Of a stretch of DNA of 64,000 nt, positions 1-38,648 are shown one piece after another. The number at the start of each line of letters is the position of its first letter. The first letter of the stretch is position 1. The stretch lies in the NCBI GenBank assembly GCA_048940925.1, contig JBHLOC010000002.1, positions 128,001 through 192,000 on the forward strand. The letters run 5' to 3'. Under the pieces are notes generated by a model. It ran no database searches and was not told where the DNA came from. It saw only the letters and a program-made list of their open reading frames with translations. The DNA is from Promethearchaeota archaeon (lineage in GTDB: Archaea; Asgardarchaeota; Lokiarchaeia; Sigyniarchaeales; SOKP01). A program made the position numbers and the translations under genes.

Positions 1-511
1 GAATATCTCTAAATACTTTAGCTAATTTATCCTGTTCATAAATACTCGTAAGCATGAAGTCAAAATCATAATCCTTAAATAGGTCTACAAAAATTTCTTT
101 GGCATTTTTCACATTTGTATCTAATAATTCCTTTTGGTAATTTTCGCTATCGTACTTATGAAAAAACAAGAATATCTTTGGTCTTTCATTATTCTTTCGA
201 TAGAGATCTAATAAATTAATAAAATAGTTTTTTGCTTCTTCAAATGTCTTAGGGTCATGTAAATCAACAATAGGAATAAGAATATCGGTTCCTCGAAATA
301 TCTCAGGTTTTTCCATATATTCTTTACGAAACTCTTCCTGACCCCCAAAATCAAAAATCCCAACTTGTAAACCTAAGAATGGATGTCTTCTCGTTTCATA
401 GAGAATGGTCGGAGCCAAACTCTTGGTATCCTCAGGAGATTTCGCAGCAAAAGCAACTGAATATACGCTTGTCTTACCACATCCACTTAGTCCAACTAAA
501 CTAATTTTCAT
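1..511 (-). CDS. Small GTPase, Rag/Gtr1-like (runs off the left edge; absent from ORF track)
   Basis: Manual translation from ATG at 511: MKISLVGLSGCGKTS (G1), APT (G2), DFGGQ (G3), FFHKYD (G4), LTSI (G5). HKxD and TSI are typical of Rag/Gtr GTPases. Confidence 0.85.
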   Translation of the reverse strand, partial: MKISLVGLSGCGKTSVYSVAFAAKSPEDTKSLAPTILYETRRHPFLGLQVGIFDFGGQEEFRKEYMEKPEIFRGTDILIPIVDLHDPKTFEEAKNYFINLLDLYRKNNERPKIFLFFHKYDSENYQKELLDTNVKNAKEIFVDLFKDYDFDFMLTSIYEQDKLAKVFRDI

Positions 512-589
512 TTTTGACTTTCCTTTTTTTAATGGTTTTTATAATACTTTATTTCATTTAACTTTTTTAATAAAATTTAATGTAGATTT

Positions 590-2080
590 TTATTCTTTTG
601 GTGTTATTTTTAGTGTTCTGGAAAATATTTTTCCAAACGAATCAGTTGAAGCTTCAACTAATATATTTGCTTGCATAGGTTCACCATCCGGTATATCCAA
701 AGGATAACCAATTTCAATTGTCTCAAACGGGAATAATTCTCTTATTGTTGTTATCCAAGGACTTTTTTCAAAAAGATCTTCAACAGCAACGATTCTAATT
801 TTCAAGTCTTCCAATACATAACCTATTGTATTAGTTAATGATATATTCAGAATTCTATCCTCTTCATTTAACTCTTTTGAAACACTAAGAAATTTTCGCG
901 TTCCTAGTGGAGGTGTAACTTCTGCCTGTTCCTCTTCTGGTTTTGTTTCAATTCTCGGTTCTTCCTTTACTTCAGAGTCCCGTACTATAAACACTTTCCT
1001 TTTTTGTATAGTGTATTGGGATACTTTTTTAAGTTTTGCTAAGTATAATACAGCATTCAGGTTAATAGCATTAAAAGGTTCTATTTTTATATAACCTTTC
1101 TTAGCAGCATCTTCTATAATTTCAGTACCAATCCCACTTCTCGCAAATACTGTATTTTTATTTGCTCCACTTCCAACTGAACCGACAGAAATATCCGCAT
1201 TTTCAGCAGTTAAATCTGTGCAAAAATTACAGCTTGAGGACTTAAATTTATCTAATTGTCTAATAGTGTAAGATTTCACTGGATCTACTTGTGGATCATA
1301 ATATAAATGGAATTTTCCCTTACTAATATCCATTTTTTGAACTTTTGATAAATCAATCCCTTCTTTGTCAAAGAATGGATAAATTGCTTCAGCTGAAAAT
1401 GAATCCATACAAAATAATCCAATTTTTAGCACATGACATCTCATAAAATATTTTAACATGCCAGTGGGGCTATCAAACATCTTTGCAACAGCATCAATAT
1501 TACATGGAGTACCTACAAATGCTATTGATCTAAAATCCTGTCTAACTGCATCCATGAGAGCTTCAACTGTTTGGGAGTGACTATAGATAGATCCTGAAGC
1601 TTTGATGGCATCATCTTTACTCGTAATAATCTGTGCTATTGGATACCATGGTTTGTTAGGGTCTTTCATTGTAACCACCGCTGCATCAATTAAATGTTCA
1701 TCAAACAAATAACACAAGAGACTTGTAACCGTGCCCCCATCCTGTCCGCCAATAACTTCTGGAATGTTAGTATTTGCAACATAGCCTGTTCTGAAATCTC
1801 CCATCAATTGGTATGGATCTGTTATTGTTCTTGGGCACTGATTATAACAAATTCCACATCCTGTACATTTGCCAATGAGTTTTGGTTGTCCTGCTAAATC
1901 ATCCCATTCTAATACTGGGCATACGGCAGCACATGTACCACACTGAGTACAGATTCCAGTTCTTATAATTTCTTTAGTAAGTAGACCAAAACTATCTTTA
2001 GCGCCTTCTAGCTTTTTTTGAATATATTCAAATGAATATTCATATGGAGATTCGGTTTTATCTGATTGATTTTCAGTCAT
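590..2080 (-). CDS. F420 hydrogenase/dehydrogenase beta-subunit family (FrhB/FdhB-like) with N-terminal ferredoxin and an extra C-terminal domain
   Basis: Two CxxCxxCxxxCP motifs, GQDGGTVT, VGTPC, IGLFCM, CNFCTDLTAENADISVG; ~120-aa extra C-terminus. Confidence 0.85.
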   Translation of the reverse strand: MTENQSDKTESPYEYSFEYIQKKLEGAKDSFGLLTKEIIRTGICTQCGTCAAVCPVLEWDDLAGQPKLIGKCTGCGICYNQCPRTITDPYQLMGDFRTGYVANTNIPEVIGGQDGGTVTSLLCYLFDEHLIDAAVVTMKDPNKPWYPIAQIITSKDDAIKASGSIYSHSQTVEALMDAVRQDFRSIAFVGTPCNIDAVAKMFDSPTGMLKYFMRCHVLKIGLFCMDSFSAEAIYPFFDKEGIDLSKVQKMDISKGKFHLYYDPQVDPVKSYTIRQLDKFKSSSCNFCTDLTAENADISVGSVGSGANKNTVFARSGIGTEIIEDAAKKGYIKIEPFNAINLNAVLYLAKLKKVSQYTIQKRKVFIVRDSEVKEEPRIETKPEEEQAEVTPPLGTRKFLSVSKELNEEDRILNISLTNTIGYVLEDLKIRIVAVEDLFEKSPWITTIRELFPFETIEIGYPLDIPDGEPMQANILVEASTDSFGKIFSRTLKITPKE

Positions 2081-11829: not shown

Positions 11830-11916
11830 AGTCATCAGCATTTTGCTTTGTATAATATAAAATTTTTTTTATTATTAATTTGTATTTAAATCAAATTCTA
11901 TATTTATTTTTTAATA

Positions 11917-16119: not shown

Positions 16120-18063
16120 ATGAAGAATAATCAAAATCATCGGATTGGATACTATGCATGTCAATGAGGTATAAATATAAGGAGTAAAGTAGATTGCGAT
16201 GAGTTAACTGAATATGTAGCTAAAAACTTTGACGATGTTGTAATTTCTAAGAAAAATTCATTTCTATGAACTGATAATGCTCAAAAAGAGATAATTGAAG
16301 ATATTAGAGAAAAGAATTTAAATAGAATTGTGGCATCAGCTTGAACTCCACGTACTCATGAAGTAATTTATAGGGGCACAATTGCTAAAACTGATTTGAA
16401 TCCTTATTATTTTCAGATGGTAAATGTGCGTGAACACTGCTCATGGTGTACAGATAGTAGAGAAGAAGCTACAGAAAAGGCTAAAATCCTAGTAAAAAGT
16501 GGTATTGAAAGGGTTAAAAGATTAGAACCAGTTCCTATTAAGACAGTTCCGGTCACTAAAGCTACTTTAGTGATTGGAGCTGGTATTGCAGGGATGAATG
16601 CGGCTCTGGATCTAGCGAATCAAGGTATCAAGGTTTACTTAGTTGACTGTAAAACTACGATAGGAGGGAGAATGGCACAATTAGACAGAACTTTCCCGAC
16701 AGATGACTGTGCAATATGAATATGTGGTCCAAAAATGTTAGAAGTTAATAGAAATGAGAATATTGAATTATTGACTTATAGTGAAGTAAAGAATGTAGAA
16801 GGATATGTCGGTAACTACAGAGTAACAATTGAGAGGAAACCAAGATTTACTACAGATGAATGTAATGGATGTGGAGCCTGCGCTGAGGTCTGTCCAGTTT
16901 ATACGACAAATTATTTCGATGAACATTTAGGGGCACGAAAAGCAATTGATATATCATTTGGCCAAGCAGTACCTTTTTTATATGATATCGATCGAAACAC
17001 CTGTGTAGAATGTTTCTCTTGTGTAGACGCCTGTGAATTAGATGCCATAGATTTTAGTCAAGAACCAAAAGAACTTAAAATTGATGTTGGTACGATTATT
17101 ATAGCGACTGGATGGGATATATATGAACCTTTTGGTGAATACGGATATGGAGAATTTGAAAACGTTATAACTCAACCTCAATTAGAACGAATGTTAGCTC
17201 CAAATGGACCTCTTGAAGGCCATGTACACAGAATATCAGATAATAAAGAACCTAAAGAAATTGTATTTATACAATGTGTTGGAAGTCGAGAAACTGAACG
17301 AACATACTGTAGTGGTGTCTGTTGTATGCTTGCTCTAAAAAATGGAAGATTACTCTTAGAGGAATTTCCAGATGCAAATATTACAGTTTGTTATATTGAT
17401 ATTAGAACACCTGAAAAAGGATTTGAAGAGTATTACGAACGATCAAAGGAAGCGGGAATTCGAATGATTAGAGGAAAAGTAGGAGAAATCTCAGAAGATC
17501 CTGATACTAAAAATATTAAAGTTCGAGTGTATTCATCGCTTACTGATGAAATAATAATAATTGATGCTGATTTAGTAGTATTATCCACAGCAGCACTCCC
17601 TTCAAAAGGATCCGAACAAATTGTTAAACTTTTAAATCTAGATACAAATACGTATGGATTCCTTACAGAATCACACTTTGGGTTAATGCCCCAAGAGACA
17701 AAAACAAAGGGAATTTTTATTGCTGGATTTGCTCAAGGACCAAAAAATATTTCTTATTCAGTTTCTCAAGCCAGAGCTGCTGCCAGTAAAGTAGCAGAGT
17801 TAACAGCACCAGGAGAAATCGATATAGAAATGATTACAGCTGAAGTTGATAGTGAATTTTGTATATCATGCAGACGATGTGAAAAAGAATGTCCGAAAGG
17901 TGCAATTAAAATTAAGGAGGATATCGGAGCATTTATTGATGAGATAAATTGTGATGGATGTGGTATTTGTGCTACATGTTGTCCTACACAAGCTATTGAT
18001 ATAAGATATTATCGAGATCATCAATTATTTGCTGAGATTGATGGTCTTTTAGGAGGTGCGTAG
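16120..18063 (+). CDS. hdrA: Heterodisulfide reductase subunit A, selenoprotein with four UGA-encoded Sec (647 aa)
   Basis: One frame from ATG 16120 to TAG 18063. TGA at 16165 (RIGYYACQUGINI), 16267 (NSFLUTD), 16342 (ASAUTPRTHE) and 16717 (TFPTDDCAIUICGPKM), each aligning to Cys in the four hdrA paralogues of this window. Confidence 0.92.
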
Positions 18064-18066
18064 ACA

Positions 18067-18537
18067 ATGAGTAAGTATAATTATAAGGTGGTAGCATTTG
18101 CGTGTATAAAATGAGGATATAGTGCAGCTGATTTAGCAGGAGTTTCCCGATTGAAATATACATCAGCTATAAAAATCATCAAAGTGCGTTGTACCGGAAG
18201 AATCGATCTAAAACATATACTCTACAGTATAAAATCTGGAGCTGACGGTGTTATGATTGTAGGATGAAGACCAAATGAATGCCAATTTAAAAAGGGTAAT
18301 TTTACGGCTGAAAAGCATGTAGAATTAGCAAACAGGATATTAGAATTGAGAGGTTTTGGAAGTCAAAGAGTAAATATGTACTGGGTAAGTGGAGCAGAAG
18401 CAGAAAAATTTGTGCGAAGTGTAGAAGATATTTTTTCGAAAGTGGAGAAAGTAGGTCCAAATCCGATAAATTTAATGGATATTAAACCAGAAATAAATAA
18501 AAAAGAAAAAGAACTAATTACAGCCCCTGTTGAATGA
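18067..18537 (+). CDS. mvhD: MvhD/VhuD/FlpD [2Fe-2S] subunit, selenoprotein with two Sec (156 aa)
   Basis: ATG 18067; FACIKUGYSAADLAG (TGA 18112), VRCTGRID, IVGURPNEC (TGA 18265). Paralogues have CNWCSY and GCHxGDC. Confidence 0.92.
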
Positions 18538-18588
18538 TTCTTGTAAAAAATGCTAGTTACAAGAGGACTAGCCTTGCAATGGAGGGGG
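18524..18588 (+). promoter_or_regulatory. Eukaryote-like SECIS element candidate
   Basis: AUGA (18534-37), 9-bp stem UUCUUGUAA/UUACAAGAG (18538-46/18557-65), A-rich loop AAAAUGCUAG, GA (18566-67); possible lower helix CCCCU/AGGGG. Confidence 0.8.
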
Positions 18589-18645
18589 ATTATTAAATAT
18601 TATAATAGATATAGATCAAAAATTTTTAAAAAAAAGGTTTAAAAT

Positions 18646-20142
18646 GTGGTTCAGATAGGCAAAGAGTATTCCTTTGATAAGATCAATCCACGGAATTTAA
18701 TGGAAGCAACATACAGGGCTATTGAAAATTTTCAGATAAGGGCTCTTTTTGAAGCAAAAGAGGAAATTTTACAAGCTGGAAAATATTCGGAAGAAGAATT
18801 TTATGAAATTTTAGACTCAATGATCGATGCTGAAACAGAACGCACATTGATTTTAGAAGAAATACGAGGTAACGAGCCCTTATTTTTAGAAGAACTAGTA
18901 AAGATTGTAAAGGACGTGCCTCCTGTAAATGTTATTAGAGATATATTTTATTTAAAGGAACAGGGTTATATTAAAAAAGAAATCGAAACTAAAATTAAAA
19001 AAGTTATCAAGAAAATTAAAGGAGAAGAAAAAGAGGTTGAAGAAAAAGAATTTTTCTATAGATATCAAGCTAAAGATCTTCCAAATGATTTTATAGAGCA
19101 CCATTTGGAACCTGTTTCTATTGTATTTAAAGCAGGAGTATGTTGTCATTGTGGATGGTGCTCCTCTATCTGTCCTGTAAATGCCATAACTGTAACTGCT
19201 GACACACTTGAAATACACGATGAAATTTGTATTAAATGTGGATTATGTTATACAGTTTGTCCTCGTTCCTTTTCAATTGAACAAGCTTTAATGGCTATTA
19301 AAAAACTTGATAAAACCTTTAAATTTTCAGAAAAAATTAATGGTTATATCGATACCTATTCTGCCACCACAACTAAAGATGAGATCAAAAAGGTACGACA
19401 AGATGGAGGAATCGTAACCTCATTATGTGAATATTTACTTACGAATAAATTAGTTGATGCGATTGTAGCTGTTCAGCATTCAAAAGACTTATGGAAACCG
19501 GAGCCAGTTATTGTAGATAATTTAAAAGATCTCTATAAGACAGGAGGGACGAAATATGCAAATGCATCAACATTAGCAATTATTGATAAAACAAAGATGT
19601 ATGAGAACATAGCAGTAGTAGGAACTCCCTGTATGATGAATGCTTTAGAAAAAGGTCAATTATTTCCAAGCGGTATAGTCTTTTTCAAGAATATAAAATA
19701 TAAAATTGGACTTTTTTGCATGGAATCTTTTCCCTATGAGGGTGTACTTGGATTAATTAAGGAGCAATTTAAACAGGATTTTACTAAAGTAACAAAGATG
19801 GATATCAGCGGTGGTAAATTTATTATCTATATGGATTCAGGAGAAGAATTAAAAGTACCACTTAACGATATTAAATCTTATGCACGCTCTAATTGTCATT
19901 ATTGTGAAGATTTAACAGCGGATTATGCTGATATTTCTGTAGGTTCAATTGGTTCAGGAAGTGGCTGGTCTTCTGTAATCACCCGAAATAAAAAGGGAGA
20001 AAAAATTTTTAAAGCTGCAGTTAAAGCTAAGTTAATCGAAGCTAAAAGTCTAAAAGAAGTTAAACCTGGTTTAGGTTTATTAGAAAGGATTGCTCTTAGT
20101 AAGAGGAAGAACTGTAAACCAATTAATCTAGAAGGAGAATAA
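18646..20142 (+). CDS. FrhB/FdhB-family protein with N-terminal helical/wHTH module and ferredoxin
   Basis: CCHCGWCSSICP, CIKCGLCYTVCP, RQDGGIVT, VGTPC, IGLFCME, CHYCEDLTADYADISVG. Confidence 0.85.
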   Translation: MVQIGKEYSFDKINPRNLMEATYRAIENFQIRALFEAKEEILQAGKYSEEEFYEILDSMIDAETERTLILEEIRGNEPLFLEELVKIVKDVPPVNVIRDIFYLKEQGYIKKEIETKIKKVIKKIKGEEKEVEEKEFFYRYQAKDLPNDFIEHHLEPVSIVFKAGVCCHCGWCSSICPVNAITVTADTLEIHDEICIKCGLCYTVCPRSFSIEQALMAIKKLDKTFKFSEKINGYIDTYSATTTKDEIKKVRQDGGIVTSLCEYLLTNKLVDAIVAVQHSKDLWKPEPVIVDNLKDLYKTGGTKYANASTLAIIDKTKMYENIAVVGTPCMMNALEKGQLFPSGIVFFKNIKYKIGLFCMESFPYEGVLGLIKEQFKQDFTKVTKMDISGGKFIIYMDSGEELKVPLNDIKSYARSNCHYCEDLTADYADISVGSIGSGSGWSSVITRNKKGEKIFKAAVKAKLIEAKSLKEVKPGLGLLERIALSKRKNCKPINLEGE

Positions 20143-20162
20143 CACATAAATATAATTTTATC

Positions 20163-21275
20163 ATGAGTTCAAAATCATTTAAGGATCTAATTAAAGAAGT
20201 TCATGAGAAAGGTATTTGTCAAGAATGTGGAGGCTGTGTAAGCTTTTGCAGTTCAGTTGATTATAATGTAATTGGATTTAAAGAACCCTTCTCACCTCCA
20301 GAATATATAAATAAAGATGCTTGTCTTGAATGTGGGATATGTTATTATCTCTGTCCTCAAACTCATATTTTGGATGATGATCTTAACAAAACATATAATT
20401 TTACTGATTTCAATTCAATGCCTTTAGGGTATTTCGAAGATATTCTATCTTGTCAAACAACTGATCCTGAATTTTTAAAACATGGAACTGATGGTGGAGT
20501 GGTAAATACAATCATAAACTACCTATTAGAAAAAAAATTAATTGATGGAGCGATTGTAGCAAAATATCAGGGTCCATTCTCTAGAGAATCCATGTTTGCT
20601 GAAGGAAAAGGTGATCTAATTAAGGCATCAGGTACAAAATTGGAAATATCTACCCAATTAGATGAAATTCAAAGATTTTGTACATATACACGCTCCATCC
20701 CTCAATTAAACCACTATAAATTTAAAAAATTAGCAATAGTGGGGACACCTTGCCAAATTTATACGGTTAGATGTATGCAAAATTTAGGTGTGACCCCTTC
20801 TGAGTATATTGAAATATGTTTAGGATTATTTTGCTATCATAATTTTCTTTTTGAGAAAACTCAGAGAGAAAAATTTGAAAAAACTTTTAATTTAAAATTT
20901 GAAAATATAAAAAAAATAAATATTAAGGAAGATTTGATTCTAAACTTGCAGTATAATAAATCTAAAGAGAAAACACTCCATATTCCTTTTGAACAGTTGA
21001 CAGATTACATCCGTCCTCCCTGTCATTCTTGTACCGATTTTACTAATATCTATGCTGATATTTCATTTGGAGGTCTTGGATCACCAAATAAATATACTAC
21101 AGTAATTCCTCGTACAGAAAAAGGTAAAAAATTGATTAACAAAATTCTTGATGATAAGATTATTAAATGTTTAGACATTGATGCTACAGCTGAAAATAAA
21201 ATGAAAGAGTTAATCACAAAATTTTCTCGATTAAAGATAAAGCGAGGAAAAGAATTTATAGAGAATTTAATGTGA
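20163..21275 (+). CDS. FrhB/FdhB-family protein
   Basis: CQECGGCVSFC, CLECGICYYLCP, GTDGGVV, VGTPCQ, LGLFC, CHSCTDF..ADISFGG. Confidence 0.85.
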   Translation: MSSKSFKDLIKEVHEKGICQECGGCVSFCSSVDYNVIGFKEPFSPPEYINKDACLECGICYYLCPQTHILDDDLNKTYNFTDFNSMPLGYFEDILSCQTTDPEFLKHGTDGGVVNTIINYLLEKKLIDGAIVAKYQGPFSRESMFAEGKGDLIKASGTKLEISTQLDEIQRFCTYTRSIPQLNHYKFKKLAIVGTPCQIYTVRCMQNLGVTPSEYIEICLGLFCYHNFLFEKTQREKFEKTFNLKFENIKKINIKEDLILNLQYNKSKEKTLHIPFEQLTDYIRPPCHSCTDFTNIYADISFGGLGSPNKYTTVIPRTEKGKKLINKILDDKIIKCLDIDATAENKMKELITKFSRLKIKRGKEFIENLM

Positions 21276-21279
21276 GGAA

Positions 21280-22536
21280 GTGAAATTTATAACAGAAATA
21301 GAAAAAAAAGGGAAACCAAAGCAAGATATTGATGAAATAGATTTATTCTTAAAAAAAATATATGAACCTAATTTAATAAATTTATTAAGAAAATGTTATC
21401 AATGTGCTCGATGTTCAGGTGTATGTCAAGTTAGCAAAGTTCAGAAGTTCACACCAAGTAGAATAATTCAGATGATTTTAGAGGGTTTTGAGGATAAGAT
21501 TATCGAAAGTGGAGTTTTATGGGATTGTTTAACATGCAATGCTTGCCTCCAAAACTGTCCTAAAGATATAAACTTTGCGGACATTGTGCGAATAGCACGA
21601 TATAAAATGCAAAAAGAAGGTTTTCACAGTCTTGATCGGTTAATATCACATAAAGGCCTTTATCCGACAATAGGTGAACTAATGAGTCAAAACCATATTG
21701 ATATTACAAGACCCTTGGATTGGATTCCAAAAGGGTGTAAAGTTAAAGATAAAGGAAATATATTATATTTTGTTGGATGCATTCCTTTTTTTGGTTATGA
21801 TTTTGAGAATTTAGACAAAATAGCGTCTAGCACATTATCAATTATTTGTAAAATTGAAAATGAGCCTATTGTTGTCCTCAAGGAAGAAGTTTGCTGTGGA
21901 CATGATTTATATTGGGGGCAAGGTAAATTTGAAGTATATATAGAATTAGCAAAAAAAAATAAAAAATTATTTGAAAAAGCAGGGATTTCCACAATAATAA
22001 CAGCATGTGCGGAATGTTATAGAACATTTAAAGTGGATTATCCCAATTTATTTGAAGATTTCGACTCAAAATTTGAAGTTAAACATATTATTGAATATGT
22101 GTATGATAATTGGAAGCTAGGGAAAATAGCTTTTAAAAGTCCTAAAAAAGCTTATCAAAATATTAATTTTACTTTTCATGATCCTTGTAGATTAAGTAGA
22201 TTTTTACCAAAAAATATAAATCTAGTAGAAGAACTTCGAGAAATTTTTACACATCTAAACAGTCTTGGGTATAATTTCAAAGAAATGAAACATAATAAGC
22301 AGAATTCATTATGTTGTGGAGTCAGTTCTTGGTTGAATTGTAATGAGCGTTCAAAAGCATTGCGATATACTAGAATTTTAGAGGCAAAGGATGTCGGTTC
22401 TAAAGTATATACATCTTGTCCTAAATGCAATATCCATTTAAATTGTATAAAGAAAGATTATGAAGATATATCTTCAGTAGAAATTTCAGATCTTTCAGAA
22501 TTTCTAGTTGATATAATTTCTATTATAAAAAATTAA
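21280..22536 (+). CDS. HdrD-like (HdrC-type ferredoxin plus two CCG domains)
   Basis: CYQCARCSGVC, CLTCNACLQNCP, EVCCG, TACAEC, HDPCRL, LCCG, SCPKC. Confidence 0.85.
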   Translation: MKFITEIEKKGKPKQDIDEIDLFLKKIYEPNLINLLRKCYQCARCSGVCQVSKVQKFTPSRIIQMILEGFEDKIIESGVLWDCLTCNACLQNCPKDINFADIVRIARYKMQKEGFHSLDRLISHKGLYPTIGELMSQNHIDITRPLDWIPKGCKVKDKGNILYFVGCIPFFGYDFENLDKIASSTLSIICKIENEPIVVLKEEVCCGHDLYWGQGKFEVYIELAKKNKKLFEKAGISTIITACAECYRTFKVDYPNLFEDFDSKFEVKHIIEYVYDNWKLGKIAFKSPKKAYQNINFTFHDPCRLSRFLPKNINLVEELREIFTHLNSLGYNFKEMKHNKQNSLCCGVSSWLNCNERSKALRYTRILEAKDVGSKVYTSCPKCNIHLNCIKKDYEDISSVEISDLSEFLVDIISIIKN

Positions 22537-22557
22537 AAAAGGGGAGATAAAAAGATA

Positions 22558-25500
22558 GTGGAAGGATCTGTATTAGTAATTGGAGGAGGTATTGCGGGAA
22601 TCCAAACATCTTTAGATTTAACTGAATTAGGATTCAAGGTGTATTTAGTAGAAAAAACACCCTCAATAGGAGGGAGAATGGCTCAACTTGATAAAACATT
22701 CCCTACATTAGACTGTAGTTTATGCATTTTGGCACCTAAAATGGTGGAAGTTTTAAGGAATCCTAACATTGAACTCATGACATATCATGAAGTGCAGAAA
22801 GTAACTGGAAAAACTGGAGATTTTAATGTAACAGTTCTTAAGAAACCTCGTTATATAGATGAATCAAAATGTAAAGGATGTGGAGATTGTGCCAGCAAAT
22901 GCCCTAAGATCGAAGCTCCTAATCTTTTTGACATGAATTTAGGTAAAAGGAAATCTATTTATATTCCTTTTCCTCAGGCTGTACCCCCTGTTTATTTAAT
23001 TGACTCTGAAATGTGCCTAAAACTCACTAGGGATGTATGTGGAGTATGTCAGAAAGTTTGTGAAGCGGATGCAATAGATTTCGAACAAAAGCCCCAAGAA
23101 ATTAAGTTAAAAGTAGGAGCAATTGTTGTAGCAACGGGATTTGATATGACCCAGGAAGGATTATCATCAAGGTGGGGTATATATCATGAAAATGTAATAA
23201 CTGCTTTAGAGTACGAACGAATCCTTTGTGCTAGTGGTCCGTTTGATGGTCATGTTCTACGCCCAAGTGATAAAAAAGAACCTGAAACAATAGCGTTTAT
23301 TCAGTGTGCAGGCTCCAGGGACTTACGTGAAAGAGTTCCTTATTGTTCAAGCGTATGCTGTATGTATTGTGCCAAAGAAGCCATAATCACACGGGAACAC
23401 TCTGAAAACTCAAAATGTTTTGTTTTTCGACATGATATTAGGGCATATGGAAAAAATTTCTATGAATTTACTCAAAGAGCTCAAGAAGAATATGGAGTAA
23501 CTTATTTTCATACAAAAATTAGTAAAATTAAAGAAGATCCTCAAACTAACGATTTAACTATTCTATATGAAGATTTACAAACGGGATTACTCAACGAGTT
23601 TAAAGCAAATTTAGTTATTTTAGCTACTCCGCTTATTCCATCGAAAGGTACTAGAGAATTGGCAAAAATTTTAGATATTAACTTAGATGATTATAATTTC
23701 TTTGAGGAAACATCTCACTTTTATAAATCTTTATCTTCAAGGGAGGGTGTTTTCTTAGCAGGATTTTGTCAAGGACCGATGGATATACCCGAAACCGTAG
23801 CAGATGCCAGTGGAGTGGCTTCACAGGTTGCAGCTTTACTTAACTCCGTTAAATTTACTCAAATCAAAGAAAAAGTTTTTGATGTACCAGAAAAAGAAGT
23901 TCTCTTAACTGATGATCCAAGAATTGGTGTGCTTATCTGCCACTGTGGTATTAATATAGGGAAATATATTGAAATACCAAAAGTTATAGATTATATTAAG
24001 GCATTACCGAATGTAGTTTTTTGTGAAGATAATTTATATTCATGTAGTTCTGATTCCCAGGAACTAATTAGAGAAGTCATCAAAGATTTTGATTTGAATA
24101 GGTTTATTGTTGCTTCATGTACTCCAAGAACTCATGAGGCTTTATTTCAAGAAACATGTCAAGAAGCTGGATTGAATAAGTATTTATTCGAGATGGTTAA
24201 CATACGGGACCAATGCTCTTGGGTTCATATGACTGAGAAAGAAGCAGCAACTGAAAAAGCTATTGATTTAATTGAAATGGCTATTGCTAAGTCTAGACTA
24301 TTACAACCACATACAGAACAAGAATTATCAGTGATACCTAATGCCTTAATAATTGGTGGTGGAGTATCTGGAATGACAGCTGCATTGAACATTGCAAATC
24401 AAGGATTTGATGTTTACCTCATAGAAAAGAAAAAGAAACTAGGAGGTCTTTTAAACGATTTATATCTTTTGTATCCAACTCAAGAAGATGCTTCGATATT
24501 CCTGAAGGAAATAACTCAGAAAGTTGAGAACCATAAAAATATTGAGGTTCATTTAGAGTCAAAAGTAAAAGATGTTAAAGGATATGTTGGAAATTATGAT
24601 GTATCCCTTATTAATACCAATAATGAGGTGAGCGAACTTAAAGTTGGTATTATTATTGTCGCTACTGGAGGTCAAGAATTAAAACCTGATCAATATTCGA
24701 TATATGATGATAAAAATCAAAATGTTATTACTCAATTAGAATTGGAGCAGAAATTAAAAAGTGAGGATAAGTCTTGGCTTGATAATATCAAACGAGTTAC
24801 TACAATTCTATGTGTAAATGCAAGACAAGATGAAGGGATTACATTTTGCTCAAATATATGCTGTGTAACGACTATCAAAAACATGAATATTCTAAAGGAA
24901 TTAAAACCAGACCTCGAAATCATTATCCTCTATAGAGATTTTCAAATGGCTAAAAAGGAATTTGAAGAATACTTTTTTGATAGGAGGAAAGATGCAATTC
25001 TTCTCAGATATGACATAAACAAACCACCAAAAATTACTAAAATAAAAAATAAACCTGAAAAATATGGTATAAAGGTATTTGATACTAATTTACAAGATTT
25101 CATTTCCTTTGATACAGATTTTGTAATCCTATCTCCTCCCATGATTCCATCAGATGATTCAAAAGAGTTAGGAAAAATGTTAAAAGTACCCTTAGATAGG
25201 CATGGCTTTTTCTTAGAAGCACATGCTAAATTAAGACCAGTAGATTTCGCTACTGATGGTGTTTTTCTATGTGGTTGTGCTCATTGGCCAAAACATATTC
25301 AAGAATCAATTACCCAAGCAAATGGAGCTGCTGGGAGAGCAAGCAGATTTTTAAGTTCAAAAGGCATTGTTGCATCAGGTTTAGTAGCAGAAGTAAATAG
25401 TGATATTTGTATAGGATGTGGTGTTTGTACGAAATTATGTCCTTATAATGCTATATCGAAAGATGAAGAAGGTATAGCGATTGTGAATAAACTTGTGTGT

Positions 25501-25608
25501 AAAGGCTGTGGGGTATGTGGTGCGAGTTGTCCCGAAAATGCTATAACTGTACATCACTTTACTACAGATCAGATCTTATCAGAAATCATTGTTTATGGGG
25601 GGGATTAA
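22558..25608 (+). CDS. hdrA: Large (double-FAD) HdrA-family flavoprotein
   Basis: Two GGGxxG FAD sites, LDKTFPT, ferredoxin insert, internal [14 protein letters not shown]-terminal 2x[4Fe-4S]. Confidence 0.9.
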   Translation: MEGSVLVIGGGIAGIQTSLDLTELGFKVYLVEKTPSIGGRMAQLDKTFPTLDCSLCILAPKMVEVLRNPNIELMTYHEVQKVTGKTGDFNVTVLKKPRYIDESKCKGCGDCASKCPKIEAPNLFDMNLGKRKSIYIPFPQAVPPVYLIDSEMCLKLTRDVCGVCQKVCEADAIDFEQKPQEIKLKVGAIVVATGFDMTQEGLSSRWGIYHENVITALEYERILCASGPFDGHVLRPSDKKEPETIAFIQCAGSRDLRERVPYCSSVCCMYCAKEAIITREHSENSKCFVFRHDIRAYGKNFYEFTQRAQEEYGVTYFHTKISKIKEDPQTNDLTILYEDLQTGLLNEFKANLVILATPLIPSKGTRELAKILDINLDDYNFFEETSHFYKSLSSREGVFLAGFCQGPMDIPETVADASGVASQVAALLNSVKFTQIKEKVFDVPEKEVLLTDDPRIGVLICHCGINIGKYIEIPKVIDYIKALPNVVFCEDNLYSCSSDSQELIREVIKDFDLNRFIVASCTPRTHEALFQETCQEAGLNKYLFEMVNIRDQCSWVHMTEKEAATEKAIDLIEMAIAKSRLLQPHTEQELSVIPNALIIGGGVSGMTAALNIANQGFDVYLIEKKKKLGGLLNDLYLLYPTQEDASIFLKEITQKVENHKNIEVHLESKVKDVKGYVGNYDVSLINTNNEVSELKVGIIIVATGGQELKPDQYSIYDDKNQNVITQLELEQKLKSEDKSWLDNIKRVTTILCVNARQDEGITFCSNICCVTTIKNMNILKELKPDLEIIILYRDFQMAKKEFEEYFFDRRKDAILLRYDINKPPKITKIKNKPEKYGIKVFDTNLQDFISFDTDFVILSPPMIPSDDSKELGKMLKVPLDRHGFFLEAHAKLRPVDFATDGVFLCGCAHWPKHIQESITQANGAAGRASRFLSSKGIVASGLVAEVNSDICIGCGVCTKLCPYNAISKDEEGIAIVNKLVCKGCGVCGASCPENAITVHHFTTDQILSEIIVYGGD

Positions 25609-25612
25609 CTTA

Positions 25613-26386
25613 ATGGAATTCAAACCAAAAATTTTAGGATTTTTATGTAATTGGTGTTCTTATGCTGGGGCTGATCTTGCAGGTGTAAGTCGAATTCAGT
25701 ATTCTCCAAATATTAGAATTATAAGAGTTATGTGTAGCGGTAGAGTTGATCCTATCTTCATTGCTGAAGCGTTTTCTAATAATATTGATGGTGTATTAGT
25801 TTTAGGATGTCATCCTGGAGATTGCCATTATATAAGTGGCAACTATGAAGCAGAAATAAAAATGAAGATGTTGAATAAATTATTAGAATTAATAGGGTAT
25901 TCTAAACGTTTACGATTAGATTGGGTTTCTGCTGCTGAAGGTAATAGATTTGCTCAGCTAGTTGATGAATTTAATGAACATATTAAGAAATTAGGTCCTA
26001 ACCCAATAAAAAACAAAAAACTAAAAGCTAAATTATCTGACGATTTTGCTGCAATAAAATCTGTTTTGATGGATTCTAGACTTAGAATTTTAGTGGGTAG
26101 AGAAAGAAAAATCACTACAGAAGGAAATGCATATAATGAGATAATCCCTATAGAGGAATTTGACCAAAAAATTGACGATGCAATTAATAATGAATTTTCA
26201 CGATATAAAATATTGCAAAAAATCTCTCACCATAGTAAATCTGTCCCAGAAATCTCTAAAGAGGTTCAAATTGCGCCAAATGAAGTATTAAATCACATTG
26301 TTACTTTAAGACAAAGAGGGCTTGTTGATTTAGATGAGGTTAATGAAGAAATACCAACATTTATTTCAATTAAGGAGGGTAAATAA
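25613..26386 (+). CDS. mvhD: MvhD with C-terminal helical/wHTH extension
   Basis: [29 protein letters not shown]; likely start MEFKPK at 25613 after a G-rich SD. Confidence 0.88.
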   Translation: MEFKPKILGFLCNWCSYAGADLAGVSRIQYSPNIRIIRVMCSGRVDPIFIAEAFSNNIDGVLVLGCHPGDCHYISGNYEAEIKMKMLNKLLELIGYSKRLRLDWVSAAEGNRFAQLVDEFNEHIKKLGPNPIKNKKLKAKLSDDFAAIKSVLMDSRLRILVGRERKITTEGNAYNEIIPIEEFDQKIDDAINNEFSRYKILQKISHHSKSVPEISKEVQIAPNEVLNHIVTLRQRGLVDLDEVNEEIPTFISIKEGK

Positions 26387-29300
26387 TGGAGAAAATAGGC
26401 GCTGTATTAGTGATAGGGGCAGGAATAGCAGGTATTCAAGCATCTATTGATTTAGCAGATTCTGGTTATAAAGTATATCTAGCGGAATCGACGATGAGTA
26501 TCGGTGGAGTTATGTCACAGCTAGATAAAACATTTCCTACAAATGATTGTGCTATATGTATACTCGCTCCAAAATTAGTACTTACTGGTCGTCATGAGAA
26601 TATAGATATTCTAATAAATTCCTCTATCGAAAAAATTGAAGGAAAACCTGGGAATTTTAAGGTTGAATTAAAACAGAAATCATTATATTTAGATCAAAAT
26701 AAATGCACAGGTTGCGGTGTCTGTGCTCAAAAATGTCCTATTGAAGCTATTGATTTTTTCAATGAAGGTCTTTCGAAAAAATCTGCGATATCTGTAAAAT
26801 TTCCCCAAGCAGTTCCTTTAGTGTTTTCAATAGATAAAGAAAAATGTATAGGTTGCGAAGTTTGTAAAGAAATTTGTAAAGCTGATGCAATAGATTATAA
26901 GTTAAAAGAAAAAAAAATTAATCTTAATGTAGGAGCAGTAATTTTAGCGGTTGGATTTGATGAATTTGAACCTGCTCCTTTAACAAATCTAGGATATGGT
27001 AAATTTTTAAATGTAATAACGAGTATTCAATTTGAGCGCATATTAAGCGCTAGTGGACCACACTCTGGTTTAATACTTCGTCCTTCGGATGGGATTATAC
27101 CCAGAAAAATAGCATTCCTACAATGTGTTGGATCAAGGGATAAAAGACATAATGTTGAATATTGTTCCTCAGTATGTTGTATGTATACTACAAAAGAAGC
27201 CGTAATTGCAAAAGAACATGTTAATATTATAGAACCAACTATTTTTACAATGGATATACGTGCATATGGTAAAGATTTTGATAAGTATATTGAACGAGCA
27301 AAACATGAACATGGGATACGATATATTAGAAGTAGAATTTCGAAAGTTAGTGAAATTCAAGACTCTAAAGATTTAAAGATTCGATATGAAACAGAAGATG
27401 GAAAAATCATCGAAGAGACCTTTAATTTAGTTGTTTTAGCTGTCGGAGCCCAACCTAATCATAGTGCTAAAGAATTGGCTGAAAAACTAGACGTTGAGTT
27501 AAATGAATACGGTTTTTGTAAGACTAATAGGTTTAATCCGGTAGAAACATCACAACCAGGGATTTATGTATGTGGGATGTTTGCTTCGCCTAAAGATATT
27601 CCAGAAACTGTTATCGAAGCAAGTGCTGCTGCTGGATGTGTGAATGTTCTTCTCTCTGAAACAAGAAATACATTAATCTCAAAGAAAGAAATGCCTGAAG
27701 AAATTGATGTGTCTGATGAACCCCCCCGAATAGGTGTTTTTATTTGTCATTGCGGGATAAATATTGGTGGTGTTGTTAATGTTCCTGAAGTAGTTGAATA
27801 TGCTAAATCTCTTCCAAGCGTAGTTTACGCTGAACATAATCTCTATACATGTTCTGCTGATACTCAAACTAATATTAAAGAAAAAATTCAAGAATATCAG
27901 CTTAATAGAGTTATAGTTGCCTCATGTACTCCGCGAACACATGAGCCATTGTTTCAAGCAACAATTCAGGAGGTAGGATTAAATAAATATCTGTTTGAGA
28001 TGGTCAATATTCGAGATCAGTGTTCTTGGGTTCACATGCATGAAGCTGAAAATGCTACCTTTAAAGCAAAAGACTTAATAAGAATGTCAGTAGCTAAAGC
28101 TAAGCAATTAGTACCATTGCAAGAACAAGAAATTGATGTGGTTGATAAAGGATTAATTATAGGCGGAGGTGTATCTGGAATGTCAGCAGCACTAAACCTA
28201 GCATCTCAAGGTTTTGAAGTATACTTACTTGAGAAGGAGGATTCTCTAGGCGGATTTGCTAAAAATATATTTCAAAGCCTTGAAAATGATAATATACAGG
28301 AATTTCTTGAAAATCTAATAAAAGCAGTTAAAGATAATCAATTGATTCATGCATATACAAATGCTCAAATCAATTCAATTTCAGGATACATTGGGAATTT
28401 TACCACCAATATAAATTATGGAAAAAATAATAAAAATGTGGATCTTGAGCATGGAATAATAATTGTAGCTACTGGAGCTAGAGAATATCAGCCAACAGAA
28501 TATAGCTTTGGAAAAGATAAAAGAATTATATCTCAAACTGAATTTGAAAAAATTCTTTTTACCACTGATAATATAAAGAATTTAAAATCAATTGTGATGA
28601 TTCAATGTGTTGGTTCTAGAAATGAAGAACATCCATATTGTAGTCGAATATGTTGCTCTGAAGCTATTAAAAATGCATTAAAAGCAAAAGAAATTGATCC
28701 TAATATTGAAATAGTAATTTTATATCGCGATATAAGAACCTACGGTTTTAAAGAGAAGTATTATAACCAAGCAAGAGAAAATAAAGTGATTTTTGTTAGA
28801 TTTGATGAAAATAATCCTCCAGAATTAAATATAAAAAACAAAAAATTAAGTATTTCTCTTAATAGACCTACCTTAGGAGATTTGGAAATTAATCCAGATT
28901 TGTTAGTATTAAGCACTGGGCTGGTAGCACCTCAAAAAGAAAATGAAGATTTAGCTAAAATGCTCAAAGTGCCGCTTAATGAAGATAAATTCTTTCTGGA
29001 AGCTCATGTTAAGTTAAGACCTATTGATTTCGCAACGGATGGGATATTCTTATGTGGATGTGCTCATTCACCTAAAAATATCAGAGAATCAATTGCTCAA
29101 GCAAATGGTGCCGCTGCCCAAGCAGTTAAAATTTTAAGTGCTGAAAATATTGTTACATCCGGTCTAGTTGCTACTGTAGTAGAAGAAAATTGTATTGGTT
29201 GTGGAACATGCGTTGAAGTTTGTCAATTTAATGCAATTGATTTAATTGAAAAAGAAAAAGTGTTTGAAGATTGTATAATTAAAATAAAAAAATCTCATAT

Positions 29301-29427
29301 TAATCCTGCCCTTTGTAAAGGTTGTGGCACATGTGGAGCGCAATGTCCAAATTCCGCAATTATTGTTAAGCATTTTGGTTTTGAGCAAATAACCGCTATG
29401 ATTTCAGCACTTTTAATTCAAAGTTAA
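26386..29427 (+). CDS. hdrA: Large (double-FAD) HdrA-family flavoprotein
   Basis: Same architecture as 22558; more divergent paralogue. Confidence 0.9.
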   Translation: MEKIGAVLVIGAGIAGIQASIDLADSGYKVYLAESTMSIGGVMSQLDKTFPTNDCAICILAPKLVLTGRHENIDILINSSIEKIEGKPGNFKVELKQKSLYLDQNKCTGCGVCAQKCPIEAIDFFNEGLSKKSAISVKFPQAVPLVFSIDKEKCIGCEVCKEICKADAIDYKLKEKKINLNVGAVILAVGFDEFEPAPLTNLGYGKFLNVITSIQFERILSASGPHSGLILRPSDGIIPRKIAFLQCVGSRDKRHNVEYCSSVCCMYTTKEAVIAKEHVNIIEPTIFTMDIRAYGKDFDKYIERAKHEHGIRYIRSRISKVSEIQDSKDLKIRYETEDGKIIEETFNLVVLAVGAQPNHSAKELAEKLDVELNEYGFCKTNRFNPVETSQPGIYVCGMFASPKDIPETVIEASAAAGCVNVLLSETRNTLISKKEMPEEIDVSDEPPRIGVFICHCGINIGGVVNVPEVVEYAKSLPSVVYAEHNLYTCSADTQTNIKEKIQEYQLNRVIVASCTPRTHEPLFQATIQEVGLNKYLFEMVNIRDQCSWVHMHEAENATFKAKDLIRMSVAKAKQLVPLQEQEIDVVDKGLIIGGGVSGMSAALNLASQGFEVYLLEKEDSLGGFAKNIFQSLENDNIQEFLENLIKAVKDNQLIHAYTNAQINSISGYIGNFTTNINYGKNNKNVDLEHGIIIVATGAREYQPTEYSFGKDKRIISQTEFEKILFTTDNIKNLKSIVMIQCVGSRNEEHPYCSRICCSEAIKNALKAKEIDPNIEIVILYRDIRTYGFKEKYYNQARENKVIFVRFDENNPPELNIKNKKLSISLNRPTLGDLEINPDLLVLSTGLVAPQKENEDLAKMLKVPLNEDKFFLEAHVKLRPIDFATDGIFLCGCAHSPKNIRESIAQANGAAAQAVKILSAENIVTSGLVATVVEENCIGCGTCVEVCQFNAIDLIEKEKVFEDCIIKIKKSHINPALCKGCGTCGAQCPNSAIIVKHFGFEQITAMISALLIQS

Positions 29428-29453
29428 ATTAAAATTAAAAGAAATGATTACCA

Positions 29454-29885
29454 GTGATAAGTAAAGAAAAAAAAATAAAAAATAAGGAATTTCATCCAAA
29501 TATTTTGTGTTTCTGTTGTAATTGGTGTAGTTATGCTGGAGCAGATTTAGCTGGAGTCTCACGATTTCAATATCCCTCTACTATTAGAATAGTACGTGTA
29601 ATGTGTTCTGGTAGAGTAGACCCCGCTTTTATTTTAGAAGCATTTAAAGATGGTATTGATGGAGTCATTGTAACAGGATGTCATATTGGTGATTGTCACT
29701 ATTTGAAGGGAAATGAATTTGCGAGAGATAGATTTGAACGTTTTCAAGAAGTTCTGAAAATATTTAATCTTGATAAAAGATTTAGACTTGAATGGGTAAG
29801 TGCCTCTGAAGGAAAACGATTTGCTGAAGTCATCACTGAATTTACTAATCAAATTAAAGAATTAGGTCCATTGCAAACTATTTAA
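29454..29885 (+). CDS. mvhD: MvhD [2Fe-2S] subunit
   Basis: [33 protein letters not shown]. Confidence 0.92.
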   Translation: MISKEKKIKNKEFHPNILCFCCNWCSYAGADLAGVSRFQYPSTIRIVRVMCSGRVDPAFILEAFKDGIDGVIVTGCHIGDCHYLKGNEFARDRFERFQEVLKIFNLDKRFRLEWVSASEGKRFAEVITEFTNQIKELGPLQTI

Positions 29886-29983
29886 AATAACTATTTTCTA
29901 AATGAGTAAAAAATTCATATTTCAGTTTCCTATTAACTTTAGAATATTTTATTTTCATCCTTCTTTATGGATAGGTATAAAAT

Positions 29984-30415
29984 GGTAAATTCAGCATCTC
30001 TTTTCAATGAAAATTCAGTGAAAATTACAGTATTGAACTTATGTCAATTTATCAAAAATGAGGAATTTGAACCTACTTGATATTTTCACGGGTGTTACAA
30101 TAGTAAACAGTCAAGAAACAGTTGAAAGGATAAGAAAAGAAAGGAATATCCTAAAAGCTAATATGAAATATCTATTTATGGGAACTCCTGAAGAGATTAA
30201 AGAAAAAATAAAAGAAGCTGAAAATTTAGGTATCAACAAAATGGTTATAGCAATAGTAAGTCCTGACATTGAAGATCCTATTGACATCTTTAGCAGAGAA
30301 ATAATGTGATAAATTTTAATCTGATGTTAATGAGATTGATTTTAAATCTTTTAAATCTCGATTTTTATTTATTTTTCATGAAAGGTAAATTCAGCGTCTG
30401 ATTTCTATGAAAATT
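29984..30415 (+). repeat. 32-bp imperfect direct repeat (29984-30015 and 30384-30415)
   Basis: GGTAAATTCAGCATCTCTTTTCAATGAAAATT vs GGTAAATTCAGCGTCTGATTTCTATGAAAATT; 28/32 identical, 400 bp apart. Confidence 0.8.
30058..30309 (+). pseudogene. C-terminal fragment of an LLM-class (luciferase-like) oxidoreductase
   Basis: LFMGTPEEIKEKIKEAENLGINKMVI is the typical LLM C-terminus; the first ~250 aa are missing. Confidence 0.6.
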
Positions 30416-30912
30416 TATTTTGAAGGATAGATAAAAAAAACCGATTGAATTTAATTCTGTAATTTCGCCTTGGACCTTAATAGAGAATATAATATTTAAT
30501 TACTAATCTACCATTTTCAAGTAACAAATTAGACTTAATTTTGAAATAAGAAATTAATAATAGAATTAGAATCAAATTTTAAACTTGAATGTATACTCTT
30601 TTTCCATTACCTACATGAATAACATGAATTTTGATCAATTCCATTATTTTTTATGAATATTGAGTGGGAAATAGATCACCAAATCTTAATTTATTATCAT
30701 TAATAAACAGAATGCAGATAATGAATAATTATTAGAAATAATATTGCCCAGATCAATTATTCTTTTGAGAAAAAGTTCTGATTTTGATCTCCTCTCCTGA
30801 GATTCTTAATAAAAATTAACAAAATATCCATAAAGGCAAAGAAAGCAAAGTACTTATGACCAGTTAGAAAAACATTGCGTTGAAAAATGTTTGGACTTGA
30901 TCATTTACAAAG

Positions 30913-30960
30913 TGAAGAATGATCGAAATCTAGCATTCTTCATAAAAATATTTATATAAT
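30913..30960 (+). promoter_or_regulatory. Inverted repeat TGAAGAATG-N12-CATTCTTCA just upstream of a TATA-like box for hdrA 31032
   Basis: Perfect 9-bp arms at 30913-21 and 30934-42; TTTATATAA at 30951-59. Confidence 0.5.
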
Positions 30961-31031
30961 TTCATTTCTTTATTTTTAAATCAACGGTGAGATAACAAAT
31001 TTTTATTTAAAAAATTAAGAAGTGTTAAGTT

Positions 31032-34112: not shown

Positions 34113-34253
34113 CCGATGGATATTTCAGATTAGCTAGAATATCACTCATTTGACAATAGAGTTATAAATACTAATCAGAAAAAATAAATTGTTTCTATTT
34201 TTTTTCTATTCATTATAGTTTCAAATTATTATAATTCATATTAACCACATAAA

Positions 34254-38629: not shown

Positions 38630-38648
38630 TTATAAGGGTAAAGAAATA

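Follow-up and report, generated by a model that had tools for sequence, protein, structure and literature searches.

A C-terminal immunoglobulin-like domain shared by a flavoenzyme and a longin protein in a Rag-type GTPase gene neighbourhood of Asgard archaea

We analysed a 64,000-nucleotide (nt) stretch of a 4.8-Mb Promethearchaeota genome (contig JBHLOC010000002.1, positions 128,001 to 192,000, here G000:C41:128001-192000; hereafter, the window), in which an Fe-S flavoenzyme of the FrhB/FdhB family (P0001) and a longin protein (P0002) are encoded 45 kb apart. Database records of close homologues carry the labels Promethearchaeota or Lokiarchaeia. The tails of these two proteins constitute one homologous C-terminal domain of ~100 amino acids (aa), which is also found on a third, putatively arrestin-like protein. 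In 5 of the 27 Asgard families sampled, the carriers of this tail cluster around one Gtr1/RagA-type GTPase, whose gene adjoins that of the flavoenzyme in the window. Our favoured reading, to which we assign a probability of about 0.5, is that the tail acts as a docking tag common to its carriers and recruits them to one hub, most likely a dimer of the Rag-like GTPase.

A C-terminal domain common to three carriers

The relationship was initially annotated from an ungapped match of 48 residues, 13 of them identical, between P0001 and P0002; a recount gave the same coordinates and the same identities. Both segments are indeed C-terminal and follow linkers, which AlphaFold models with low confidence in both proteins. 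Taken by itself, however, this match is at chance level. A BLASTP comparison of tail with tail yielded 21 bits and an E value of 0.002 as a single comparison, and the same pair had an E value of 1.3 in an all-against-all BLASTP search of the window's 52 open reading frames (ORFs), ranking 69th of 1,326 pairs. Single-sequence searches of this genome with P0001 and P0002 did not detect each other. The initial annotation also held that a real relationship should give a significant profile-profile match between the two families; for the FrhB-tail family against the P0002 family, hhalign returned a probability of only 5-9% (P 0.003-0.008) with profiles built from ~90 and ~118 close homologues.

The two tails are nevertheless homologous, because slower-evolving orthologues bridge them and because their strands and invariant residues coincide. 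A profile of the FrhB tail (A1), searched against 1.84 billion representative proteins, produced 18 matches, most of them partial sequences or remote relatives within that FrhB family, and retrieved P0260, a 349-aa member of the P0002 family, at an E value of 7e-4, aligned at residues 263-328. P0260 and P0002 are full-length homologues (32% identity, E 2e-47), and the tail of P0260 is 45% identical over 86 aa (E 1e-28) to that of P0252, an FrhB orthologue that is itself 44% identical to P0001 along its whole length and keeps the Cys motifs. The tail of another FrhB protein, P0255, matches P0002 directly (E 2e-9). P0249 (1,267 aa) and P0250 (3,137 aa), also among the 18 matches, were rejected as carriers, their scores being sums of 30-residue matches to near-identical tandem repeats.

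Structure prediction points the same way. The AlphaFold strand lengths are 8/8/12/13/7/9/10 in the FrhB tail and 9/8/12/13/7/9/10 in the P0002 tail, and strands 1-5 of both coincide residue for residue in the register of the initial 48-residue match. Family-invariant residues occupy the same columns: an Asn at the end of strand 2, F-E(-K) at the start of strand 4, and F/Y/W-P-x-E in the loop that joins strands 4 and 5 (the invariants of the FrhB tail being N417, F437, E438, P451 and E453). When the ESM Atlas was searched by shape with the FrhB tail, the proteins ranked next to those of its own family were from Promethearchaeota and 344-346 aa long (template modelling (TM) score 0.70-0.73, root-mean-square deviation (rmsd) 2.3-2.4); to judge from their length and taxon, these are probably members of the P0002 family. 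Chance similarity of two unrelated beta-rich tails, with which the direct BLASTP and hhalign values would agree, is contradicted by the intermediates and by the shared register and invariant residues. We regard its probability as negligible, the idea having been refuted by the profile search and by the P0252/P0260, P0260/P0002 and P0255/P0002 matches, and on these grounds the domain first proposed as common to the two proteins is upheld.

Both tails are modelled by AlphaFold as seven-strand immunoglobulin (Ig)-like sandwiches, as the initial annotation anticipated in calling the domain a beta-sandwich, with a mean predicted local distance difference test (pLDDT) score of 85.9 for the FrhB tail and values mostly of 84-93 for the P0002 tail. 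They match the same solved domains (GH2 accessory, transglutaminase, HAP2 domain 3 (HAP2-D3) and DUF3244) in a flat list of Ig-like matches of the E-set type (Z 8.3-10.6, rmsd 2.4-3.4). In Foldseek, RhoGDI came first for the FrhB tail (E ~4e-4, TM 0.45-0.5, 90 columns), NPC2 and MD-1 also appeared, and the P0002 model matched RhoGDI as well; we rejected a relation to RhoGDI, NPC2 or MD-1, these matches being weak and not separable from those to dozens of generic Ig-like domains. Neither tail has a Pfam match at E <=1, and P0002 has no NCBIfam match, in keeping with the original description of the domain as unrecognized. The tail is thus a new sequence family inside a common fold.

The tail is not a generic Ig unit found on many proteins. 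A combined profile (A3) detected three carriers among the 11,761 six-frame frames of at least 60 aa in this genome (hmmsearch E values of 6e-30 for the FrhB tail, 2.8e-30 for the P0002 tail and 6.5e-4 for a 406-aa protein). Against a collection of 5.8 billion proteins, only FrhB-type and ~347-aa proteins appeared among the best 120 of 372 A3 matches, so that two very large searches returned the same families only. A 361-aa frame elsewhere in this genome (G000:C67:26973-28055, minus strand) gave a weak A3 match at residues 157-253, which was not significant (E 0.025).

The 406-aa protein is the third carrier. The tail profile matched an alignment of ten of its homologues with an hhalign probability of 97.4% (E 1.4e-11, 90 columns). 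Its N-terminal 290 residues match Pfam Arrestin_C below the cut-off (E 0.074, profile positions 8-136 of 137), and Atlas language-model features (0.86 for arrestin/Vps26/Spo0M clusters) offer a lead only; a sequence-profile search of the PDB with its family gave one chance-level match only. In the same left flank, 7-10 kb from the window (L005), we also observed a Rab-like GTPase gene fragment and an Arf/MglA-like GTPase gene (197 aa) that faces the arrestin-like-tail gene and converges with it across a gap of 20 nt.

In a tree of 39 tails, sequences group by carrier type, the arrestin clade having a Shimodaira-Hasegawa-like approximate likelihood ratio (SH-aLRT) of 99, and carrier labels change 5 times compared with 20.1 when shuffled. 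Fusion to each of the three carrier types therefore happened before these lineages diverged. The mean column identity of the tail is 75% in each family, like that of the catalytic parts, and many polar residues are invariant. The FrhB and longin tails are 45% identical when P0252, a Jordarchaeum-labelled record, is compared with the P0260-type longin tail, and 25% identical in this genome. Concerted evolution of the tails was considered and rejected; ordinary divergence is enough because the tree groups by carrier with short branches in the P0252 and P0260 lineages.

The carriers and their GTPase neighbour across Asgard archaea

The gene downstream of that for P0001 encodes a GTPase that its sequence places in the Gtr1/RagA family: Pfam Gtr1_RagA (PF04670) matches at E 5.7e-25 (88.5 bits against a cut-off of 22), and the family profile matches solved structures of Gtr1/RagA at 1e-20 to 1e-21, of RagC/Gtr2 at ~1e-12 and of Arf at ~1e-9. 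The motifs GxxGCGKTS, DFGGQ, HKYD and TSIY are conserved in 17 orthologues, with the G4 motif HKYD replaced in one of them by HKFD, and the C-terminal 100 residues are strongly conserved. A second Rag-like GTPase copy, 60-63% identical to the GTPase of this genome, lies outside the module in genus g3 (Table 1).

P0001 belongs to the FrhB/FdhB family (PF04422 and PF04432; 135.4 and 70.5 bits against cut-offs of 23.3 and 22), with Pfam matches to FrhB_FdhB_C (1.9e-39), FrhB_FdhB_N (1.3e-19) and Fer4 families; its known Pfam domains end at residue 337. Because it scores below the cut-offs of the NCBIfam equivalogs TIGR03289 (160.8 against 331.5 bits), NF006808 (122.1 against 444) and NF040616 (119.4 against 475), it is classified as a divergent paralogue rather than as a named FrhB/FpoF subunit. 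In this genome, cofD and cofG, which serve F420 synthesis, score above their cut-offs. A ThiF/E1-like gene lies on the other strand, 1.5 kb from the FrhB-tail gene.

Translation of P0002 may begin either with the TTG at 45548 or with the GTG at 45563; the 347-aa database form fits the GTG. Its N-terminal domain has the longin secondary structure beta-beta-alpha-beta-beta-beta-alpha in the AlphaFold model and belongs with the longins. The best VIA-align match was chain 6nzd_H of the lysosomal folliculin-Rag-Ragulator complex, which we take to be FLCN (Z 9.6, rmsd 3.2, 143 aligned residues); it was followed by Sec22 (9.3, a tie), a GATOR1 chain (8.9), a SEA complex chain (8.7) and a Lokiarchaeal longin (8.6), and the longin matches, which include VAMP7 and BLOC-3, span Z 8.0-9.6. 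A sequence-profile search of the PDB with the longin family returned one chance-level match only. Of the initial DENN/longin reading of this protein, the longin half stands and the DENN half does not, as no strand is predicted at residues 117-249. A DENN core was rejected: AlphaFold shows helices and a disordered linker only, and Pfam gives no match. Invariant in the family are G36, before strand 2, and S92-R94-K96-R98-A99-G100 in the strand 4-5 loop.

Gene order ties the Rag-like GTPase to the carriers more closely than the initial annotation could see: the FrhB-tail and GTPase genes form a conserved pair, and elsewhere the longin-tail gene belongs to the same cluster. The FrhB-tail gene is directly upstream of the GTPase gene at 26 of 30 loci and at 69 of the 75 assessable loci of close relatives. 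In L006, L010 and L011, gaps of 10-80 nt separate the FrhB-tail, GTPase and arrestin-tail genes, and the longin-tail gene is 2-4 kb away. The L006 GTPase is 62% identical to that of this genome and the arrestin-like protein 31% (E 5e-64); P0269, a 349-aa longin-tail protein, carries the NCBI label Candidatus Jordarchaeum sp. The carriers in the window are 45 kb apart because an Hdr/Mvh/FrhB cluster has expanded in this genome. Identified by Pfam and paralogy, it contains repeated cassettes with four HdrA-like genes (~1015-1031 aa, 48-78% mutually identical), three MvhD/FlpD, two HdrB/C-like CCG, one Fer4 and two tail-less FrhB genes; the cluster between the longin-tail and FrhB-tail genes of L015 is single-copy, with an HdrA-like protein 66% identical. 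The initial annotation had the two carriers right and missed the third, the CBS partner described below and the nature of the 45-kb gap as an expanded cluster inside a conserved block.

A CBS-pair gene adjoins the longin-tail gene in five lineages and is fused to it in L008 (632 aa). In this window the longin-tail gene has no CBS neighbour; a GNAT acetyltransferase gene is found there instead, a pairing that recurs in L015, from another genus of the family. In family f22, some loci carry the tail on a GltD/NfnB-like flavoprotein (Fer4_20 and Pyr_redox_2, 577-588 aa; L012 and also G139, G184, G193 and G119), whose gene ends an operon with NuoF-like, NuoG/Fdh-like and DHODB-FeS genes and which is a second, independent fusion of the tail to a redox enzyme. 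In three lineages we further observed a peptidase C25 gene (gingipain/clostripain-type) lying between the genes for the longin-tail and FrhB-tail proteins, and in L006 and L010, V4R-domain genes after the arrestin-like gene.

To follow the distribution of the module, we used 201 genomes across the phylum, with E <=1e-45 as the threshold for GTPase orthologues. The tail domain was found in 63 of the 201 (37/40 in f1, 5/5 in f8, 3/3 in f13, 1/1 in f18, 6/6 in f19 and 10/10 in f22) and the GTPase orthologue in 55 (33/40 in f1, 5/5 in f8, 1/1 in f18, 6/6 in f19 and 9/10 in f22); neither was found in the other 21 families. By hand tally, 51 genomes have both a redox-enzyme tail and the GTPase, 4 only the former, 4 only the latter (with partial genes or contig ends) and 142 neither, a co-occurrence that is to be read as a pattern, not a statistic, because relatives are not independent.

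Table 1 Features of the window, its left flank and related loci. Plain positions refer to the window unless a locus or contig is named.
Feature	Position	Strand	Remarks
Rag-type GTPase gene, 5' part (residues 1-170 of 302)	1..511	minus	Gtr1/RagA type; runs ~400 nt past the left window edge
Whole GTPase gene	G000:C41:127603-128511		302 aa
Spacer, FrhB-tail/GTPase	512..589		78 nt, AT-rich; genes co-oriented, GTPase downstream
FrhB-tail ORF (P0001)	590-2080	minus	496 aa
P0001 shared tail, residues 396-494	599..895	minus	Seven-strand Ig-like sandwich (AlphaFold)
P0001 segment of 48-residue match, residues 413-460	844-701	minus	Strands 2-5 of tail
P0001 linker, residues 361-395	896..1000	minus	Acidic, Pro-rich; pLDDT 48-59 in first 20 model residues
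P0001 catalytic part, residues 1-360	1001..2080	minus	2x[4Fe-4S] ferredoxin, then FrhB_N and FrhB_C (Pfam)
ThiF/E1-like gene	3643-4461	plus	Pfam ThiF 2.3e-69
Hdr/Mvh-type cluster	16735..39083	plus	Fills most of the gap between carriers
Longin-tail ORF (P0002)	45548-46606	plus	352 aa
P0002 longin domain, residues 22-138	45611..45961	plus	AlphaFold secondary structure
P0002 helices (residues 139-211) and disordered linker (212-247)	45962..46288	plus	pLDDT <50 at 214-247
P0002 shared tail, residues 248-350	46289..46597	plus	AlphaFold and own-genome hmmsearch
P0002 segment of 48-residue match, residues 266-313	46343-46486	plus	Strands 2-5 of tail
GNAT acetyltransferase gene	46620..47096	plus	13 nt after P0002 gene; Pfam Acetyltransf_1 1.3e-7
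Arrestin-like-tail protein	G000:C41:119829-121049	same as GTPase	406 aa; 6.5 kb left of window/GTPase gene
Left-flank genes	L005 1-417, 1215-1808, 1829-3049
Second Rag-like GTPase copies (g3)	G129:C188:6579-7478; G147:C1:148710-149609; G180:C459:2685-3584; G040:C8:3469-4368		Off-module
L006	CBS 1775-2227; peptidase C25 3681-5696		Order: CBS, longin-tail, peptidase C25, FrhB-tail, GTPase, arrestin-like-tail, V4R genes
L010 (f19)	CBS 12370-12876; peptidase C25 9059-11080		Order as in L006
L011 (f8)	CBS 11254-11889; peptidase C25 7430-10045		Order as in L006
L008	longin-tail-CBS fusion 281-2179		Fusion directly upstream of FrhB-tail/GTPase/arrestin-tail trio
L014 (f18)			Rearranged; includes HdrA-like and MvhD genes
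L015, L041-L044 (f1, genus g3)			Trio intact; longin-tail and GNAT 11 kb away across single-copy HdrA/MvhD/FrhB cluster
This window (f1, genus g1)			HdrA/MvhD/FrhB cluster expanded
L047, L048 (f22)	CBS L047 3320-3754; L048 7663-8082		GTPase orthologue (43-45% identical) converges on FrhB-tail, CBS and two longin-tail paralogues
L012, L046 (other f22)	CBS L012 5678-6076		Tail on GltD/NfnB-like flavoprotein, NuoF/NuoG-like operon, ~6.5 kb from GTPase, beside longin-tail and CBS genes
GltD/NfnB-like fusion gene	L012 3935-5668	plus
FrhB-tail gene of f13	L013 5444-7030		528 aa

Proposed docking on the GTPase and its alternatives

We propose that the linker-tethered tail would dock its carriers onto the GTPase dimer. 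Once there, the longin protein could serve as a GTPase-activating protein (GAP) or regulator of the GTPase and the arrestin-like protein as an effector or adaptor, while the flavoenzyme might signal the redox state of F420 or NAD(P)H/ferredoxin to the switch, or itself be under the control of the switch, an arrangement that would amount to redox-to-GTPase signalling. The CBS-pair protein that is encoded beside the longin protein or fused to it in other lineages may add an adenylate input. These roles are drawn by analogy with eukaryotic Rag regulation and from known domain functions. In complex prediction, two GTPase copies with the FrhB tail scored 0.54 (runs of 0.48, 0.59 and 0.54) against 0.01 for the best of three controls, a result classed as weak support; 76% or more of the contacts recur between runs, and the partner has a pLDDT of 75 or higher. 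Of 80 solved complexes, 58 reached this mark, as did 2 of 110 mismatched pairs; among these, only seven of the solved complexes but both mismatched pairs had scores of 0.60 or less. The prior for GTPase docking is raised by the conservation of the operon, which is not proof. Docking of the flavoenzyme onto the longin protein, as suggested in the initial annotation, is not indicated by any of these results.

Several observations weigh against docking on the GTPase or against the roles assigned to its partners. The interface prediction is a weak pass, and such passes are more often wrong than right unless the prior is good. Asgard genomes are rich in small GTPases and some adjacency will arise by chance, although not in this conserved pattern. 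In the three f13 genomes (G012, G023 and G034; 94-97% complete), which have an FrhB-tail protein, we found no GTPase orthologue, longin-tail or arrestin-tail protein, and at least five f1 genomes have a longin-tail protein and lack both FrhB-tail and GTPase; the tail can therefore persist without the proposed hub. (The tail of the f13 protein lies on a long branch of the tail tree.) In GAP-type longins (FLCN, NPRL2 and SMCR8), strand 2 is preceded by a GP motif, and an arginine finger is catalytic (PMC12290439). Although G36 is invariant, the Pro of this motif is absent from P0002 (G-Q) and P0260 (G-H); in the loop between strands 4 and 5, R94 and R98 do not vary, and the folliculin-complex chain ranks first among fold matches but ties with non-GAP longins. 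P0002 is, by analogy, a candidate GAP or regulator. The arrestin fold of the 406-aa protein is putative, being based on a sub-threshold Pfam match and language-model features.

The same observations bear on other roles for the tail. It is doubtful, in our estimate, that the tails bind each other, knotting flavoenzyme, longin and arrestin-like protein into a hetero-oligomer that the GTPase engages through longin or roadblock surfaces. Ig-like sandwiches often pair through edge strands, three tail-bearing genes are kept together (three also in f22), and some genomes keep tail-bearing genes without the GTPase; eukaryotic longin GAPs, moreover, act as subunit pairs (PMC12290439), and f22 has two longin-tail paralogues. 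Hetero-pairing cannot, however, be the sole role of the tail in f13 genomes because they have a single tail-bearing protein, and the prediction of a tail-GTPase interface, a weak pass with clean controls, also speaks for docking on the GTPase instead.

Alternatively, all tails might recognize one ligand that is not a protein, for instance a membrane lipid or another small molecule, and thereby gather their carriers in one place. This would fit the best Foldseek matches of the FrhB tail, which are lipid-binding sandwiches (RhoGDI, E 4e-4, TM 0.5; NPC2/MD-1). Those matches are weak, however, and sit within the flat, generic Ig-like list (Z 8-10.6); an obvious prenyl ligand is also lacking, because the Asgard Rab-like GTPases examined have no C-terminal cysteines for eukaryote-type lipidation (Tran et al. 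2024, PMC10933270), and we consider such a target improbable. Equally hard to credit is a passive structural or solubility module, copied long ago between neighbours, with no shared partner and in a cluster kept for other reasons. The fold is generic, neighbouring genes can swap domains by local recombination, and the tail persists in f13, where the other module genes were not found; yet the tail equals the catalytic parts in conservation, was already present on three carriers when the lineages diverged and has stayed on them, became joined in a separate event to another kind of redox enzyme within this gene neighbourhood and occurs on nothing else in the searches made.

Docking on a GTPase dimer could be extended to a functioning archaeal precursor of the Rag nutrient switch of eukaryotes, in which redox inputs (F420 or NAD(P)H/ferredoxin pools, through the flavoenzyme) and adenylate inputs (through the CBS protein) would pass by way of a folliculin/NPRL2-like longin GAP to the GTPase dimer, with output to the arrestin-like adaptor (and the C25 peptidase) and the tail as docking code. 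We think it unlikely that this whole scheme is correct.

Comparison with known systems

Rag-family GTPases, NPRL2/FLCN-like longins and a possible GAP role have already been published for Asgard archaea (PMC12290439; bioRxiv 10.1101/2020.10.19.343400; PMC10933270), and a conserved Asgard longin/DENN operon contains a non-Rag GTPase (bioRxiv 10.1101/2020.10.19.343400). Rag-, Rab- and Arf-like GTPases are numerous in Asgard archaea, as are longin/roadblock proteins, of which there are dozens. Regulators have seldom been matched to GTPases because their genes are generally not in shared operons, as reported for cultured MK-D1 (Tran et al. 2024, PMC10933270). The module described here is an exception, with a Rag-type GTPase tied to longin, arrestin-like and redox partners by gene order, co-occurrence and a private domain, and its few, well-defined proteins lend themselves to binding, GAP and redox assays. 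Our literature search, the coverage of which was incomplete, found no description of the tail domain or of a cluster of FrhB, Rag-type GTPase, arrestin-like and longin genes. What appears new, then, is the private, putatively docking domain and the hard-wired link of a Rag-type/longin switch to Fe-S flavoenzymes. If the F420 or NAD(P)H link holds, this would point to a monitoring of energy metabolism by Rag-type switches that is older than eukaryotes.

FrhB and FpoF are Fe-S flavoproteins that react with F420, as subunits of F420 hydrogenase and F420H2 dehydrogenase. P0001 resembles them in having both FrhB Pfam domains and an N-terminal 2x[4Fe-4S] part in FpoF order, and in being encoded in a genome with F420 synthesis genes. 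It differs in falling below the equivalog cut-offs, in its extra linker and tail and in lying beside a GTPase gene rather than genes for hydrogenase or Fpo subunits.

The layout of the carriers, a core followed by a linker and a sandwich, also recalls adaptor protein (AP) complexes, in which a folded core (in the mu and sigma adaptins, a longin domain) and then a flexible linker precede a C-terminal beta-sandwich that recruits partners. No sequence relation to the AP appendage ('ear') or mu-homology domains was found, however; the solved matches of the tails are generic Ig-like domains, and the sandwich is attached here to three unlike cores, including a redox enzyme. RhoGDI, the top Foldseek match of the FrhB tail, has a sandwich that binds small GTPases, but the tail lacks the N-terminal regulatory arm and these archaea have no known prenyl ligand.

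The closest comparison is with the eukaryotic Rag/Gtr system. The GTPase is of the Gtr1/RagA family, with a C-terminal extension of the right size, and the linked longin protein has its best fold match in the folliculin complex, recalling FLCN-FNIP and the NPRL2-NPRL3 pair of GATOR1/SEACIT. Asgard longins of the FLCN/NPRL2 type have been proposed as possible GAPs (PMC12290439), and P0002 has a conserved Gly before strand 2 and a conserved Arg-rich loop. In contrast to the eukaryotic system, the module has one GTPase gene, not a RagA/RagC pair, and is without a DENN domain, Ragulator, TOR components or the GP-motif Pro. Its partners carry a private Ig-like tail, and its gene cluster adds an Fe-S flavoenzyme and an arrestin-like protein, joined in other lineages by CBS and C25 peptidase genes.

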